From a virus: 14,972 nt of DNA. Made by a program: the position numbers and the translations under genes. The notes under the pieces were generated by a model, which made no database searches, was not told the DNA's origin, and saw only the letters and a program-made list of their open reading frames with translations. The stretch lies in UHGV virus genome UHGV-1739818. One strand, given 5' to 3'. Each line of letters starts with the position of its first letter. The first letter of the stretch is position 1. Of this stretch, positions 4,106 to 14,972 are shown piece by piece.

Positions 4106-4114
4106 TGTTAAAGG

Positions 4115-4138
4115 GTGGGCTATACGCCCACTTTTTTT
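4115..4138 (+). terminator. Rho-independent terminator downstream of the major capsid gene
   Basis: GTGGGC (4115-4120), loop TATAC, GCCCAC (4126-4131), followed by T7 (4132-4138). Confidence 0.7.
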
Positions 4139-5072: not shown

Positions 5073-5080
5073 TCAATATT

Positions 5081-5098
5081 GGGCGGCGAAAGCCGCCC
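5081..5098 (+). other. Stable GNRA-tetraloop hairpin without a U-tract
   Basis: GGGCGGC-GAAA-GCCGCCC, a perfect 7-bp GC stem, 9 nt after the Big_2 gene stop. Followed by ATGTAGAG rather than a T-run, so not a canonical terminator. Confidence 0.4.
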
Positions 5099-5116
5099 AT
5101 GTAGAGAGAATGCGTT

Positions 5117-8453: not shown

Positions 8454-8479
8454 AGAGGCTCAGGATGGGCCTCTCTTTT
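8454..8479 (+). terminator. Candidate weak intrinsic terminator after the major tail gene
   Basis: AGAGGC (8454-8459), 9-nt loop, GCCTCT (8469-8474), then CTTTT. Short U-tract, so possibly partial. Confidence 0.35.
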
Positions 8480-8495
8480 AAAAGGATTTTAACCA

Positions 8496-8813: not shown

Positions 8814-9163
8814 TTTCCCGCGATGAATCCGGGACAAGGACCGTCTCAATAGATCTCGGATTCTATTTCAGTCGTGTAGTTGCTCACTACGCCGTGTCGC
8901 CATTAGAGCTACTGAACGTTCCTCTCACGATGTTCTGGATGCTCAGTCGCAATATAGACCGTCTGCGTGCGGAAGAGGATGTCCGCAACTTACAAGTCGC
9001 TCGTGCGTCCCAGGCGGATGGCGAGGCTGTGAAGGCGTTCATGGAGGGTTTGCAACTCAGGATTGGAAGACCAGTCGTAACAGATAAAGTCTACGATCCA
9101 AGCCAGGATAAGGCAGACCCTGACGCCAAAGAGCAACTGATGCAAATATTTGGCAGAGGATGA
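8777..9163 (+). CDS. T-domain reading frame of a G-T tail assembly chaperone fusion, expressed by -1 programmed frameshift from 8496..8813
   Basis: The -1 frame is open from 8777 (after TGA at 8774-8776) to 9163 and overlaps the last 37 nt of the G-like ORF. There is no SD before its first internal start (GTG 8894). Its stop overlaps the tape measure start region. Confidence 0.6.
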   Translation, partial: RKRKSGWRRGKVISRDESGTRTVSIDLGFYFSRVVAHYAVSPLELLNVPLTMFWMLSRNIDRLRAEEDVRNLQVARASQADGEAVKAFMEGLQLRIGRPVVTDKVYDPSQDKADPDAKEQLMQIFGRG

Positions 9164-9170
9164 CAAGGGA

Positions 9171-10856
9171 ATGTCACAAAACGTAGAGTTTATCCTGTCG
9201 CTGGAAGACAAACAGTTTACAGCGTCAATCGATCGTGCGGGGAAACTGCTTACTCGATTTGGTGAGCAGGTAACAAAGCCTGCTCAAAAAATCCAAACCT
9301 TTGAACGCTCTTTGGGTTCGGTCGCCCGTATCATTGGCGTTCTGGAAAGCAAGCTCGATTCTACGGCAGATAAACTACAGGATGTAGCTGCCGGTTTTGA
9401 GCTTGCTTCAGATGCTACGCGTAAAATGCGTGGCAACATCACCAGCCTCAATTCTGGTCTTAAAGCCCTGATTGAGCGCGTCGATACGACAACTTCTTCA
9501 GTAGATAAACTCACCGCGTCATTACGTAAAGTGCAATCAGAGCTAAATGATTTCTCTGATTGGGCGACCTATGCAAGCAAAAGCGCAAGCCGCTTTGGTA
9601 CGGAGGTCAAAGAAGCCTCTGCGTCCGTGAGTGGCATGAATACGCGCCTTAATACCACGACGAAGCGACTCAGTAATTGGGGTGTCACAACGAGTCAGGC
9701 TGCCGAGGGACTGAAAAAGGTTCGTGAGCAGATGGACGAAGTTATCGGACGTCAGCAACTGATTAGCAAGCCGGTACGCGTTCGTACATCTGGAAGTGGC
9801 GATGGTGGTAGCGGGCGGCGTAGCGGCGCTTCTGGCCATAGCGGTAAAAGTAACGAAGGAGGTATGTTCTCTGGCCTTCGTGGCAACATTTTCCTGCTTG
9901 GCGAGATCGGAGATGCAGCCAGAACGGTTACTGACATCATGTTTGGGTGGCAGAAGCCTATTGTTGAAGCTGCGGCCGAAATGGAACGTATGCGGGTGAT
10001 GCTTCGAGGGTTGAATAAGGAGAAGTCCAACCCGGGCCAGGCTGCCGCTGATGATATGAAGTACATCGTAGACATGGCGCAAAATGCGCCGTTCGCGATG
10101 CAGGCGTTAACAGATTCCTTCGTGAAGTTTCGTTCTGCTGGCTTAGATCCAACCGATGGTTCTCTGAAGGCGCTGGTGGACTCCGTTGCTCGTTTTGGTG
10201 GTGATAGTGAGCTGTTGAAACGTGCGGCTGTGGCCGTTCAGCAGATGTCCGGTAAGGGCGTTGTGTCAATGGAAGAGCTACGTCAGCAATTAGGTGAAGC
10301 CGTTCCTAACGCGATGCAGGCAATGGCAGACGCCGCAGGCATCACTATGGGGGAACTGACTAAAGCCGTTGCCAGCGGTACGGTTGAGGCAAAACAGGCG
10401 TTGTCTCTGATGTTTGTTGGTCTGCGTGCGGAGAATGAGAACGCAGCGAAAGACATGATGCAAACCTACACAGGTGCGCTGGCGCAACTTCAGACGTCAT
10501 TCACGTTATTTGCTGATCGGGTTGGTCAGGCCGGATATCTGGATTCTCTATCGAAGGGGATGAAAGAACTGGCTTCAATCATGAATAGCGCCGAAGGGAT
10601 TTCGTTTGCCAATTCTTTAGGCTCGGGGTTAACGACGGCAATCGATGGGTTGCGTCAGCTTGCTCAATGGTTAGCAAAGAACCAAGAGCTGGTAATTAAT
10701 CTCGGTAAGGTCGTGGCCGCGATGGTTGCGTTCAAACTGATGCGAGCAGGGATCATGGGGGTAGTTGGCGCAGGCAGCCAGATGGTTAGCACCTTTGCCA
10801 CGATGGCGACCGCCATACAGACTCCATTTAACCTCGGCGCTACAGCAGTAAGATGA
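9171..10856 (+). CDS. Tail tape measure protein, N-terminal/major segment
   Basis: ATG 9171 with GAGGA 10 nt upstream (the track start at 9150 is a TTG without SD). Coiled-coil N-terminus, Gly/Ser-rich linker, and a region typical of tape-measure core domains (…NAPFAMQALTDSFVKFRSAGLDPTDG…); hydrophobic C-terminal segment. Confidence 0.8.
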   Translation: MSQNVEFILSLEDKQFTASIDRAGKLLTRFGEQVTKPAQKIQTFERSLGSVARIIGVLESKLDSTADKLQDVAAGFELASDATRKMRGNITSLNSGLKALIERVDTTTSSVDKLTASLRKVQSELNDFSDWATYASKSASRFGTEVKEASASVSGMNTRLNTTTKRLSNWGVTTSQAAEGLKKVREQMDEVIGRQQLISKPVRVRTSGSGDGGSGRRSGASGHSGKSNEGGMFSGLRGNIFLLGEIGDAARTVTDIMFGWQKPIVEAAAEMERMRVMLRGLNKEKSNPGQAAADDMKYIVDMAQNAPFAMQALTDSFVKFRSAGLDPTDGSLKALVDSVARFGGDSELLKRAAVAVQQMSGKGVVSMEELRQQLGEAVPNAMQAMADAAGITMGELTKAVASGTVEAKQALSLMFVGLRAENENAAKDMMQTYTGALAQLQTSFTLFADRVGQAGYLDSLSKGMKELASIMNSAEGISFANSLGSGLTTAIDGLRQLAQWLAKNQELVINLGKVVAAMVAFKLMRAGIMGVVGAGSQMVSTFATMATAIQTPFNLGATAVR

Positions 10857-11860
10857 GCTTCTCCAGCCTATCTCAGTCCATTTTGAAAGATATCACCAAT
10901 ATGGTCGTGAAGTCGCAAATCACGCTGCCTCTAATGAACATGTTGGGGATGGGAACCACCGCAGCTGGTAGTTCACAGAGTGGCAATTTGCTCACTGGAG
11001 TTGCTTCCGCCGTTGCCAATCAAGGGGTACGAATGGGCAACACTGTTAACGGCGACAAGTCGGTGGGAGAAGCCACGAAGGAGACGTCCAGTTCGGTAAC
11101 TGGATTGGGGCAAACAACACAGCAGACCACCAGCGCAATTGGCACTGCAACAAATGCGATTGGTAGCTGGGTATCAGGGCTATTTGATAGCACCGAAGCC
11201 AAAGATGCTGAAACAAAAGCAGTGAAGGACTCCATCTTCTCGATGCAGAACCTCAGCTCTGTTACCGGCGCTCTGTCTGCCGCGTTTGCAATGCTTGGAG
11301 CTAATGCTTCCGGCTCTGGTAATAAGTGGTTGAATTTCGGCGCGACAGTTGCATCTGGTTTGGTTTCAGTATGGGCTGGTGGTGGATTCGATGGATTGAT
11401 GTCCGGTTCTTCTGGCTCAACTTCCGGGTTCAACAATCTGACCAGTTCTGCTGCCGATGGCACGAATGGTATTCCTGCAATTCCGAAGTTTGCAAATGGT
11501 GGCATATTCGGAAAAGACGGCGTGATCCCGCTCCGGGCATACCAGAAAGGCGGTATCGCCAACTCACCTCAATTGGCGTTGTTTGGGGAAGGCGATATGA
11601 ATGAGGCGTATGTTCCATTGCCTGATGGTCGAACAATCCCTGTAACGCTCAGTACCGATGGTATGAGTGGAGGAGGAAATGTTCTTTCTCCGGTATCAAT
11701 TGAGATCAACGTCCATAGTGACGGTAGCACAACTGAATCCGGCGATACAGAAAGCATATGGAACAATGCCGCTCAACGGATGAAAGCAATCGCGCTTGAG
11801 ACTATCGCTCAAGAGAAACGCCCTGGCGGATCACTCAACCCAAACACTCAACGTAACTAA
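10853..11860 (+). CDS. Tape measure protein, C-terminal segment, encoded as a separate ORF in the -1 frame
   Basis: Starts at ATG 10853 overlapping the upstream stop (ATGA). Gly/Ser/Thr-rich with a FANGGIFGKDGVIPL…GEGDMNEAYVPLPDGRTIPV block resembling conserved tape-measure C-terminal motifs. Confidence 0.65.
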   Translation: MSFSSLSQSILKDITNMVVKSQITLPLMNMLGMGTTAAGSSQSGNLLTGVASAVANQGVRMGNTVNGDKSVGEATKETSSSVTGLGQTTQQTTSAIGTATNAIGSWVSGLFDSTEAKDAETKAVKDSIFSMQNLSSVTGALSAAFAMLGANASGSGNKWLNFGATVASGLVSVWAGGGFDGLMSGSSGSTSGFNNLTSSAADGTNGIPAIPKFANGGIFGKDGVIPLRAYQKGGIANSPQLALFGEGDMNEAYVPLPDGRTIPVTLSTDGMSGGGNVLSPVSIEINVHSDGSTTESGDTESIWNNAAQRMKAIALETIAQEKRPGGSLNPNTQRN

Positions 11861-11865
11861 CTATC

Positions 11866-11887
11866 GACTGCCCCGACCGGGGCAGTC
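11866..11887 (+). other. GC-rich hairpin after the tape measure stop (9-bp stem, no U-tract)
   Basis: GACTGCCCC (11866-11874), loop GACC, GGGGCAGTC (11879-11887). Followed by TCACAAGG rather than a T-run. Confidence 0.45.
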
Positions 11888-11902
11888 TCACAAGGATGTG
11901 AG
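11887..11902 (+). promoter_or_regulatory. Hairpin presenting the Shine-Dalgarno of the gpM-like gene in its loop
   Basis: CTCACA (11887-11892), loop AGGA (11893-11896), TGTGAG (11897-11902), then ATG at 11903. Confidence 0.35.
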
Positions 11903-12238
11903 ATGGAAAGACAAACGTTTAATTGGTATCCAGATTACGAATCTGAAAAAAGCGTAAAACCGAATGTAACGGTACTTAATTTTGGTGATGACTACGAGCA
12001 GCGACAGGCTCAAGGTCTTAATCGTATTAAAGAAGAATGGTCGTTAACCTTTACCAGATCATACAACGAAATTAATGCAATCGATGACTTCCTGACTGAG
12101 CGAGCAGGCGTTGAGTCGTTCTATTGGGTTAATCCAAGAGGAAAACGGATTGTAGTTGTATGTGACAGTCATACGGTCAAGCGATATCAGGGGTACTGTG
12201 TCTTAACAGCTACATTCAGACAAGTATTTGAGGCTTAA
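11903..12238 (+). CDS. Minor tail protein, lambda gpM homologue
   Basis: 111 aa; pattern F.W…V.V..FGD.Y.QR…GLN……F…FL.E..G…F.W.NP…V.C……F.QV matches lambda gpM as I recall it; position immediately after the tape measure. Confidence 0.8.
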   Translation: MERQTFNWYPDYESEKSVKPNVTVLNFGDDYEQRQAQGLNRIKEEWSLTFTRSYNEINAIDDFLTERAGVESFYWVNPRGKRIVVVCDSHTVKRYQGYCVLTATFRQVFEA

Positions 12239-12275
12239 GTATCTGGATAAGTAAGTACTAATTTACTATCATTGT

Positions 12276-12298
12276 GGCGCTGACAGGATGTTAGCGCC
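12276..12298 (+). other. Hairpin in the M-L intergenic spacer
   Basis: GGCGCT (12276-12281), 11-nt loop, AGCGCC (12293-12298), followed by TACTTATTTC. Confidence 0.3.
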
Positions 12299-12320
12299 TA
12301 CTTATTTCAAGGATGAAACA

Positions 12321-13019
12321 ATGGGAATTAAAGCTGATATTCAGAGCTTATCTCCCTCTGCACTCATTGAGTTGTTCGTACTGGATATGTCGAACACAAC
12401 TTCAGGGGGGAAGCTATTCTTCCACGCCGGAACAAACGAACTGATGCAACCGGTCGTCTGGCAAGGAGTGACATACGAGCCGTGGCCAATCAAAGCATCA
12501 GGCTTTGACAAAACTGGCCAGGGAACGTTGCCACGTCCAAAAATTCAGGTATCGAACTTTGCCGGAACTGTCTCTGCGGAAGTTCAGGCAAACGACGATC
12601 TTGTTGGCTGCCGCATTATTCGCAAGATGACGCTGGCTCGCTTCCTCGATGCCGTTAATTTTAAAGACGGCAACCCAACAGCAGATCCAAACCAACATTT
12701 CCCGGATGAAATGTGGTTTATCGAACAGAAAACTCTCGAAACTCATCAGGTTGTCGAGTTTGAATTGTCCAGTGTGTTCGATTTGATGGGGGTGCAACTG
12801 CCGTATCGTCAGATCATTAAAAACACCTGCCCGTGGAAATACCGAGGGCCAGAATGCGGCTATACCGGTCCATATTTCGACAAAAATAACCAGCAGACGT
12901 CTATGTCTGGTGCTGATTACTGCACAAAACGTTATGACGCCTGTAATGCGCGTCGGAATTATTTTGCCAACGGAGTGATCCATTTTGGCGGGTTTATTGG
13001 AGCTACGCGATATGGGTAA
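12321..13019 (+). CDS. Minor tail protein, lambda gpL homologue (tail tip, Fe-S cysteine motif)
   Basis: ATG 12321 with AAGGA 7 nt upstream (the track start at 12288 adds 11 poorly supported residues). Blocks VVWQGVTYEPWPIKASGFDKTGQGTLPRPKIQVSNF, RFLDAVNF.DGNP.ADPNQ and CPWKYRGPECGYTGP…C…C match lambda gpL as I recall it. Confidence 0.85.
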   Translation: MGIKADIQSLSPSALIELFVLDMSNTTSGGKLFFHAGTNELMQPVVWQGVTYEPWPIKASGFDKTGQGTLPRPKIQVSNFAGTVSAEVQANDDLVGCRIIRKMTLARFLDAVNFKDGNPTADPNQHFPDEMWFIEQKTLETHQVVEFELSSVFDLMGVQLPYRQIIKNTCPWKYRGPECGYTGPYFDKNNQQTSMSGADYCTKRYDACNARRNYFANGVIHFGGFIGATRYG

Positions 13020-14387: not shown

Positions 14388-14404
14388 TCAAGGATTTTTT
14401 GGAC

Positions 14405-14972
14405 ATGGAACAGTTCAAGAAGAAAAAATTACCGCTTCTTATTGCCGGTGCTGGTGGCAAGAAAAGTAAAAGCTCCAGCCGTACCCCGGTTGAAGCTGAT
14501 GATACTGTCAATTCTCGTGCTATGGCAGCCATCCTCGACCTTCTTGGCGAGGGGGTTATCGGTGGCCTGGTAAATGGCGCAAAGTCGATCTTCATCGACG
14601 ATTTACCGATCTTGAATGAAGATGGCTCTTCCAACTTCAGCGGTATTACATGGGATTTTCGTGACGGCTCACAAGATCAGACGCCAATGGCTGGTTTTGA
14701 TTTTGTCGAAACGCCTAAGTCCGTAAATATTCAGCTTAAAAAAACACACGACGTTACGGTTTCAATCGATAACGATGAAGCTGATCGCGTTCGTGTCATC
14801 ATGAAATTCCCCTCTTTACGTAGCGTTGATAAAAGCTCTGGCGATACAAATGGCACTACGGTGAAGTACAAATTCCAGATCGCCAACGCAGACGCAACAT
14901 TTTCTGATGTAGTGGCAGAAGGTGAGAAAAGCGTTGATATCACGCTAACGGCAAAGAAAACCGGCGTGTATT
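14405..14972 (+). CDS. Tail tip / central fibre protein, lambda gpJ homologue, N-terminal part (3' end beyond window)
   Basis: ATG 14405 with AAGGA 10 nt upstream, open to the window end (not in the ORF track because there is no stop). Translation MEQFKKKKLPLLIAGAGGKKSKSSSRTPVEADDTVNSRAMAAILDLLGEGVIGGLVNGAKSIFIDD… parallels the lambda gpJ N-terminus. Confidence 0.8.
   Translation, partial: MEQFKKKKLPLLIAGAGGKKSKSSSRTPVEADDTVNSRAMAAILDLLGEGVIGGLVNGAKSIFIDDLPILNEDGSSNFSGITWDFRDGSQDQTPMAGFDFVETPKSVNIQLKKTHDVTVSIDNDEADRVRVIMKFPSLRSVDKSSGDTNGTTVKYKFQIANADATFSDVVAEGEKSVDITLTAKKTGVY

Follow-up and report, generated by a model that had tools for sequence, protein, structure and literature searches.

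Two adjacent RNA hairpins of the sense strand, located at the start of a gpM-like minor tail protein gene, are under selection in a group of phage-plasmids represented here by UHGV virus genome UHGV-1739818, of which the whole analysed stretch of 14,972 nucleotides is referred to below as the window. The upstream hairpin, HP1, is selected for its structure only, with an unconstrained loop, and the downstream hairpin, HP2, is selected as a specific sequence in which a GGA is exposed on the Shine-Dalgarno (SD) sequence of the gpM-like gene. The special feature of the site is this motif and its position, not the presence of a hairpin. As HP2 has been conserved as a motif rather than as a generic stem, it points to a trans-acting binder (CsrA) and not to a purely thermodynamic block. 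We tentatively propose, with a confidence just short of even, that host CsrA would bind HP2, compete with the 30S subunit and repress gpM, and that the same could hold for gpL, to which K and I would be coupled, and for holin and endolysin.

Two conserved hairpins between the tape-measure and gpM-like genes

The window derives from an SSU5/pHCM2/pMT1-type phage-plasmid: its region 11400-12400 shows 99.7% identity to Escherichia phage Cyrano (pLF82) and 77% identity to Salmonella phage SSU5, and homologues were found in 780 plasmid records, including S. Typhi pHCM2, Y. pestis pMT1 and many elements of Klebsiella, Enterobacter and Citrobacter. The host genera on record for the homologous elements all belong to the Enterobacterales, which share a highly conserved CsrA. 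Upstream of the junction lies an ORF that aligns with the 3' end of the Cyrano gene annotated as tape measure, a C-terminal fragment whose TAA stop is at 11858-11860 on the plus strand; downstream lies a gene for a minor tail protein of 111 aa (11903-12238, plus strand) that matches Pfam Phage_min_tail PF05939, the lambda gpM family, with E = 5e-35, its start ATG at 11903 being the one used in the annotated homologues. An earlier note, made from the letters of this DNA alone, had named both flanking genes correctly. The tape measure-M spacer measures 42 nt in the window and 39-48 nt across all homologous junctions.

To assess conservation, the junction was taken from 186 loci, which reduce to 31 distinct sequences from roughly ten lineages; the relatives compared are those of the SSU5-like group, with 4 loci from a genome contig scan and about 100 contigs of one family from viral contig scans. 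The adjacent hairpin pair is present in 31/31 distinct junctions, drawn from elements of E. coli, Shigella, Salmonella, Yersinia, Klebsiella, Enterobacter, Citrobacter and Kluyvera, and this conservation rules out chance as its origin. In the junction alignment 89% of the cells assigned to stems are paired, compared with 72% after shuffling and at most 51% when the pairing partners are slid against each other. The earlier note had described tandem hairpins at this junction and had named a calculation of folding energy as a way to check them. Both hairpins lie exactly where it had placed them, and the 45-nt element folds at -23.4 kcal/mol (z = -4.9), with 0/200 shuffled sequences as stable. Within a 121-nt context, pairing in the ensemble reaches 93% or more for both stems, and the GGA of the SD is 100% unpaired.

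The strand on which the element acts can be approached from the variants. Single substitutions in the stems often yield G-U pairs, and of 32 variants listed, which represent 31 distinct spacers, 11 fold 2-5 kcal/mol better as the plus strand than as the minus strand; both findings fit an element working as sense RNA. These per-variant energies are more informative than a strand test that counts cells with G-U against cells with A-C, which was set aside because it is confounded by the outermost column. When searched with a covariance model of the two-hairpin element, Cyrano, SSU5 and a K. quasipneumoniae element each yielded a single copy, so that the element is not a repeat family, and no Rfam family reached its gathering score in the window, with only noise at E <= 10 around the site. 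Two further candidate features were rejected: an outer stem CUAUC/GAUGG that would sequester the AUG is restricted to the lineage of the window and is not conserved, and an AUG-UGA mini-ORF at 11896-11901 is without SD spacing and is absent from the Klebsiella lineages.

HP1 (11866-11887, plus strand) consists of nine perfect pairs between a 5' arm at 11866-11874 (GACTGCCCC) and a 3' arm at 11879-11887 (GGGGCAGTC), closed by the loop GACC (11875-11878), and folds at -19.4 kcal/mol (z = -5.6). It begins 5 nt downstream of the tape-measure stop codon in the window and 4-7 nt past the stop in every lineage. Both sides have changed in a compensatory manner in 8/9 of its pairs (covariation score 0.45 vs 0.18), and the arms accordingly read CTGCCCC/GGGGCAG, GCTGCCC/GGGCAGC, GGCCGCC/GGCGGCC, CTGCCTAC/GTAGGCAG, GCCGCCTAC/GTGGGCGGC or TGTCGTCC/GGGCGACA, among others, in different lineages. 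The loop, on the other hand, drifts even among E. coli elements of 98-99% identity (GACC, GGTC, GACG, GATC); it carries a GGA in the SSU5-type and K. oxytoca-type lineages (GGAA, ACAGGAC, ACAGGAA) and none in the window. The earlier description of a GC-rich stem of 9 bp without a U-tract is confirmed by the sequence: no U-tract follows HP1 in the window, where the next bases are CTCACAAGG, nor in any of the 31 variants, where the 3' flank is always (C/A/U)UCACAAGGA or similar, and a terminator scan of the window did not call HP1. The free loop and the lack of a U-tract in any lineage identify HP1 as a structure-only RNA element and not a terminator.

HP2 (11888-11901, plus strand) directly abuts HP1 and is formed by the 5' arm TCACA (11888-11892), the loop AGGA (11893-11896) and the 3' arm TGTGA (11897-11901). 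A sixth pair, C11887-G11902, uses the last base of HP1, so that the helices are directly adjacent and compete for C11887. The hairpin as first drawn, CTCACA-AGGA-TGTGAG with the SD in its loop and its 3' arm abutting the ATG at 11903, therefore stands, with the reservation that its sixth pair shares a base with HP1. The spacing from AAGGA to the ATG is 6 nt. The stem is kept in 29/31 variants, with 90% of its alignment cells paired, and the gap between HP1 and HP2 is 0-1 nt except in the L064/L066 lineage, where HP2 is degenerate. Once HP1 has formed, HP2 contributes only about -4 kcal/mol. We also considered a switch in which the 3' arm of HP1, released when that hairpin opens, would lengthen HP2 across the AUG; such folds occur in several lineages, but the helices are weak and bulged, and the switch is put forward only as a possibility.

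Matches to the CsrA consensus at late-gene starts

For CsrA, SELEX gave the consensus RUACARGGAUGU, in which the GGA occupies a hexaloop on short stems closed by AC/GU pairs; the repeats of CsrB read CAGGA(U/A/C)G, the loop recognised by RsmE is ANGGAN, and a CsrA dimer can bridge sites that are 10-63 nt apart (PMC7652899). At gpM, the motif ACAAGGATGT (11890-11899, plus strand) matches the CsrA/RsmE consensus (A/U)CANGGANG(U/A) at 10/10 positions and also fits the ACARGGAUGU core of the SELEX consensus. This 10-mer form of the RsmE consensus reportedly goes back to Schubert et al. in 2007. Its GGA (11894-11896) is unpaired in the HP2 loop (P(unpaired) = 1.0) above a stem of 5-6 bp and overlaps the SD AAGGA (11892-11896). 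The predicted gpM site combines a loop GGA, a consensus match and SD overlap, features by which CsrA sites are recognised. The HP2 stem of 5-6 contiguous pairs compares with at most 4 in most SELEX ligands.

Across the gpM junctions ACAAGGAUGU matches the consensus at 10/10 positions in 30/31 variants. One of these, L064, retains the full motif despite having lost the lower stem, and the remaining variant, L066, scores 9/10; every lineage has the GGA at -8 to -11. Variation in HP2 is confined to the degenerate positions of the consensus, that is, to the two N positions and the outer pair, which changes between A-U and U-A in five sequences and is the sole covarying pair of the hairpin, the C, the A, the GGA and the G being invariant or nearly so. 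Some caution is advisable in reading such a site, since any SD contains a GGA and the flanks of the consensus are self-complementary, so that an SD hairpin can resemble a CsrA site.

The two-part design of the M junction, a GC hairpin followed by a hairpin holding the SD site, recurs at the M-L junction, where the spacer consists of an AT-rich inverted repeat with TATCAT, a GC hairpin and the gpL SD hairpin. The GC hairpin, GGCGCTGACA-GGA-TGTTAGCGCC (12276-12298, plus strand), carries at its apex CAGGATG (12284-12290), a match to the CsrB repeat, with the GGA at 12286-12288 single-stranded in the loop; its stem covaries (GGCGCTGAC, CAACGTCAC, GTGCGCTAAC) and the apex ACAGGAxGU is conserved. 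The SD hairpin TTTC-AAGGAT-GAAA (12305-12318, plus strand) holds TCAAGGATGA (12307-12316), again a 10/10 match, and this gpL site, TCAAGGAUGA, scores 10/10 in 24/24 distinct gpL junction variants. The gene for minor tail protein L (12321-13019, plus strand) matches PF05100 with E = 6e-97 when scored from the 12321 start. Its longest ORF and the Cyrano annotation use ATG 12288, which lies inside the hairpin loop; all other annotated homologues and the conserved sequence use 12321, and judging from these the true gpL start is ATG 12321. K and I both overlap the genes preceding them and are, for this reason, probably coupled to L.

A second GGA within the bridging range of a CsrA dimer is clear at gpL, where the SD-site GGA lies 25 nt downstream of the M-L apex GGA. 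At gpM, the window offers only a possible and weaker second site, AUGGA (11903-11907), which is 10 nt away, the minimum bridging distance, and is predicted to be paired.

The inverted repeat of the M-L spacer, GATAAGTAAGTACTAATTTAC, and the -10-like TATCAT behind it (together 12246-12272, plus strand) are conserved in all lineages. As a separate observation, the inverted-repeat motif has 4 matches in the window, at 3 sites (before the portal gene, before the gene after portal, and before L), where 0 are expected, and TATCAT or TATGAT follows it. A promoter-like site was called at 12244-12272, and the repeat with TATCAT is a candidate late promoter for an L-K-I(-J) unit; if this promoter is real, the M-L GC hairpin would lie at the 5' end of the L-K-I(-J) transcript. 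A possible parallel is phage P1, in which Lpa binds a 9-bp inverted repeat belonging to the 11 late promoters (PMC10695390), the Lpa-type promoter being composed of a -10 hexamer and an upstream conserved inverted repeat, with no -35.

Elsewhere in the 15-kb window the 10-mer consensus has no match on either strand, the gpM and gpL SD sites being the only ones. Among the 119 annotated CDS of Cyrano, 10/10 sites at gene starts belong to M, L, holin and endolysin only, and those of J and the tail fibre reach 9/10; every independently initiated gene from M to endolysin has a site of at least 9/10, with K and I overlapping their upstream genes. Of the 2392 GGA sites that form the background, 0.67% score 10/10 and 5.7% score 9/10 or better. 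The full score of M, L, holin and endolysin recurs in SSU5 and in the K. quasipneumoniae element, whereas neither J nor the fibre keeps a 9-10/10 site in SSU5 or Klebsiella; matches at the holin and endolysin starts are shared by three diverged relatives. Hairpins with stems of 7 bp or more bear the CsrB-type sequence CAGGA[UAC]G at their apex in 3 cases, against 0.14 expected, always on the plus strand and in the late region; two of these three hairpins are the one at the M-L junction and a terminator-like one between the tail-tube and chaperone genes (window 8454-8474).

Other genome-wide signals did not hold. The 10-mer is not enriched as such (16 observed vs 12.4 +/- 3.4), and only its positional enrichment at late-gene starts remains; GGA-in-loop hairpins under a loose definition are too common to inform. 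An SD presented in a loop is not a general design of the genome either, given that at least 4 flanking pairs are found at 22.5% of Cyrano starts vs 16.3% of control GGA-type sites, and a short stem around the SD of any single sequence is in itself unremarkable.

Possible modes of action and their alternatives

If CsrA is the binder, a dimer on HP2, whose motif corresponds to the high-affinity consensus of this host RNA-binding protein, would compete with the 30S subunit and gpM would be repressed in proportion to free CsrA, with the stability of HP2 itself (about -4 kcal/mol) adding a mild attenuation in cis. At gpL, the CAGGAUG-apex hairpin 25 nt upstream of the SD-overlapping site could take part in binding, and the overlapping K and I would presumably follow L. 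Control of gpM translation, which the earlier note had offered as one function for the hairpins, is indeed the most plausible job of HP2; the rationale given there, that distal tail genes are damped because they are needed in low copy number, is not supported as a general device of SD-in-loop hairpins, for similar stems stand at the starts of the abundant tail-tube and major-capsid proteins and are not enriched genome-wide. For HP1, the role proposed alongside is purely inferential: as a fixed structural block it may insulate the start region of gpM from ribosomes that reach the stop codon 5 nt upstream, such that this region would fold alike with or without ribosomes terminating on the tape-measure ORF, and it may stabilise the upstream mRNA by shielding it from 3' exonucleases.

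Would HP2 need a binder at all? An attenuator acting purely in cis, in which the folding energy of HP2 limits access of the 30S subunit to the gpM SD and HP1 stacks on it, would account for a hairpin that encloses the SD and the whole SD-ATG spacer, for the persistence of the stem in nearly all variants with one compensatory pair, and for the narrow gap between the helices, which allows coaxial stacking; in addition, masking of the 5' arm of HP1 allows HP2, in the lineages of E. coli and Salmonella, to lengthen to 8 bp and draw the AU of the start codon into its stem. The energy available is small, however, and the SD bases themselves are unpaired. Such a device further predicts that the loop-adjacent C-G and A-U pairs covary, yet at two different genes, and across about 10 lineages, the C, A and G never change, just as in the protein-binding consensus; L064 keeps the motif while losing the lower stem, and SD-in-loop stems of this kind occur at highly expressed genes as well. 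We regard a cis-only mechanism as unlikely. The loops could alternatively be operators for a translational repressor encoded by the phage, in the manner of T4 RegA or the MS2 coat protein, instead of sites for host CsrA. The clustering of the sites in one temporal gene class (M, L, holin, endolysin) would agree with this, as would the many uncharacterised small ORFs and the T4-like replication genes of the phage, but a tblastn search for a phage-encoded CsrA gave nothing below E = 2, no candidate protein was identified, and the motif agrees with the consensus of host CsrA at every position, which makes a phage binder quite improbable.

HP1 raises alternatives of its own. It might determine mRNA stability or processing, either as a barrier to 3'->5' exonucleases that protects the tape-measure segment once an endonuclease has cut the mRNA or by a REP-like stalling of terminating ribosomes, due to its closeness to the stop codon, that lowers the upstream product. 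Selection for structure with a free loop, the constant position a few nucleotides past the stop in every lineage, and the presence of about 25 similar intergenic GC-rich hairpins a few nucleotides past stop codons across the Cyrano genome, many without a U-tract, all speak for such a role, and Liang, Rudd and Deutscher reportedly found in 2015 that ribosomes stall where a REP element lies within 15 nt of a stop codon. HP1 is nevertheless a single-copy element outside any repeat family, and its strict adjacency of 0-1 nt to HP2 suggests joint work with the initiation region and not only with a 3' end. We consider this role of HP1 somewhat unlikely; it is compatible with CsrA acting on HP2. Processing by an RNase III-type enzyme, which the earlier note had raised in the form of an RNA processing site, finds no support in the helices of 9 and 5-6 bp, which amount to about 15 bp even when coaxially stacked; RNase III sites of the T7 type need roughly 20 bp of (interrupted) double-stranded RNA. 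Reduced transcription, also suggested there, would make HP1 a weak intrinsic terminator or attenuator for M and the distal tail genes. HP1 is stable, GC-rich and intercistronic, terminator-like hairpins with T-runs follow the major capsid and tail-tube genes, and the T1 hairpin of ColE7 is a terminator in an analogous position. Against this stand the missing U-tract in the window and all 31 variants and the terminator scan, and the candidate late promoter about 380 nt downstream, before L, would leave only M affected; we judge termination at HP1 very improbable.

The wider proposal is that the SSU5/pHCM2/pMT1 phage-plasmids have wired the independently initiated tail-tip genes M and L (with the coupled K and I) and the lysis genes, holin and endolysin, into the host Csr network by way of conserved consensus CsrA hairpins, with CsrB-type-repeat loops serving as tethers. 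This seems possible, although on balance doubtful. Were it true, virion completion and lysis timing would track free CsrA and hence the carbon and growth state of the host, and conversely CsrA might be soaked up by the abundant late mRNAs in the lytic cycle. Binding by CsrA would provide a clear case of temperate phages ceding the translation of late structural and lysis genes to a global host regulator; our literature search returned no report that connects CsrA with SSU5-like elements or with the late genes of phages. The SSU5-like family is clinically widespread, comprising Typhi pHCM2, Y. pestis pMT1 and phage-plasmids of Klebsiella and E. coli with resistance genes, and for this reason a host-state gate on particle production would bear on the spread of these elements. 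If CsrA does not bind, the pair is of an ordinary kind, two conserved hairpins between cistrons by which translation is tuned.

Comparison with known RNA elements

The closest likeness is to the cei-cel junction of ColE7, which, as the gpM element, resides on an extrachromosomal element of enterobacteria. There, CsrA occupies both the GGA loop of T1, a hairpin between the two cistrons, and ACAAGGAGU over the SD of cel, and represses translation of the lysis protein (cel) about 5-fold (PMC2896534). Both systems share a GC-rich intercistronic hairpin followed by a site that overlaps the SD of a dose-limited gene, ACAAGGAGU in the one and ACAAGGAUGU in the other, and control by CsrA would tie the output of tail-tip and lysis proteins to the host Csr network much as that of cel is tied. 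The loop GGA of T1 is found also in the M-L hairpin and in HP1 of the SSU5-type and K. oxytoca-type lineages, but not in HP1 of the window; T1 is described as a transcriptional terminator, whereas HP1 is without a U-tract; and the SD site here is itself enclosed in a hairpin of 5-6 bp abutting the first, unlike that of ColE7. Binding by CsrA has been demonstrated for ColE7, where the repression is translational, and is a prediction for the gpM element.

HP2 also resembles the glgC-type leaders, the SELEX ligands, the CsrB repeats and the RsmE-hcnA hexaloop in presenting a GGA in the loop with paired AC/GU flanks. The arrangement of one site over the SD and an upstream hairpin-loop site within 10-63 nt, as in glgC-type leaders, is found at gpL (25 nt). 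The glgC-type sites lie in a 5' leader, whereas that of gpM comes immediately behind a translated ORF, in the interior of a polycistronic late mRNA, and compared with most SELEX ligands the HP2 stem is somewhat longer; the second site at gpM is uncertain. HP1 can be set beside intercistronic stabilisers and REP-type hairpins such as the malE-malF REP, being likewise GC-rich, post-stop, intra-operon and devoid of a U-tract. It differs from REP-type elements in being single-copy, in having no repeat-family sequence and in being always joined, at 0-1 nt, to the next SD hairpin.

Hairpins that shape initiation are known from other phages. In T4 genes 38 and 25, a hairpin between the SD and the AUG shortens the distance between them, and in the MS2 replicase operator the start codon lies in the stem and the binder is the coat protein. 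The gpM element shares with these regions a conserved hairpin that shapes initiation, the difference being that here the SD is in the loop and the SD-AUG spacing is already optimal. Taken on its sequence features, the gpM element is a candidate member of the class of CsrA-repressed initiation regions, joined in this case to a structure-only intercistronic hairpin.

Hairpins at gene starts between tail tube and gpJ

Downstream of the tail-tube gene lies a terminator-like hairpin, AGAGGCTCA-GGA-TGGGCCTCT followed by CTTTT (8454-8479), whose loop holds CAGGAUG, a repeat of the CsrB type; the equivalent loops read CAGGAAG in Salmonella phage SSU5 and CAUGGAUG in the related K. quasipneumoniae element. 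It is followed by a second stem, TTAAAA-GGA-TTTTAA (8478-8492), within which the Shine-Dalgarno (SD) sequence of the chaperone gene lies. At the gpJ gene the start codon itself is placed in a loop, AUGGAACA, closed by a 10-bp stem (TTTTTTGGAC/GTTCAAGAAG; 14395-14422), and the AUGGA loop at this start is common to Escherichia phage Cyrano, SSU5 and the K. quasipneumoniae element.

For gpL, the start of the longest ORF, which is also that of the Cyrano annotation, is ATG 12288, within the loop of the GC hairpin (12276-12298) in the spacer between gpM and gpL. Judged from homologue annotations and the conserved SD, the real start is position 12321. In the relative IMGVR_UViG_2711768037_000009 (approximately positions 1834-1938 of L042) the GC hairpin of this spacer is absent, and a tandem array of about 6-7 GGTGAT copies is found instead, together with a different hairpin; the gpL SD motif, TCAAGGATGA, is kept.

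A split tape measure gene

In comparison with Cyrano, where the tape measure protein is encoded by one uninterrupted ORF of 1525 aa, about 1.9 kb is missing from the gene in the window (junction at 10850-10856). The deletion looks out of frame, the gene being divided into two ORFs of 568 aa (9150-10856) and 335 aa (10853-11860) with ATGA at the join. Since the gene is split and none of the 201 matching plasmid records contains the deletion junction in one piece, the copy in the window is either tail-defective or an artefact of assembly.

Intergenic hairpins and candidate late promoters

Further hairpins lie 3' of the major capsid gene (terminator-like, with a T-run; 4113-4129) and 3' of the Ig-like decoration gene, the latter a GC hairpin, TGGGCGGC-GAAA-GCCGCCCA, that has no U-tract on the plus strand (5080-5099). 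The Cyrano record (L095/L096) has small families of intergenic hairpins, at 53808, 57410 and 58549 and at 97788 and 98259; three hairpins have the stem AGGCGTCC-NNNN-GGACGCCT and two have AAGGCCACC...GGTGGCCTT, and this sharing of stems suggests that terminator or stabiliser modules have been reused in the early and plasmid regions.

An AT-rich inverted repeat resembling GATAAGTAAGTACTTAYYTAT gives four matches at three sites in the window (none expected): upstream of the portal gene (663-683), of the gene after portal (2170-2190) and of gpL (12246-12266). The copies at 2170 and 12246 are followed by a -10-like hexamer (TATCAT or TATGAT); at 663 the search for promoter-like sites gave no call. 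In SSU5 and the Klebsiella relatives, similar copies precede the genes for the tail tube and the fibre. In their combination of inverted repeat and -10 element, these candidates resemble P1 Lpa-type late promoters.
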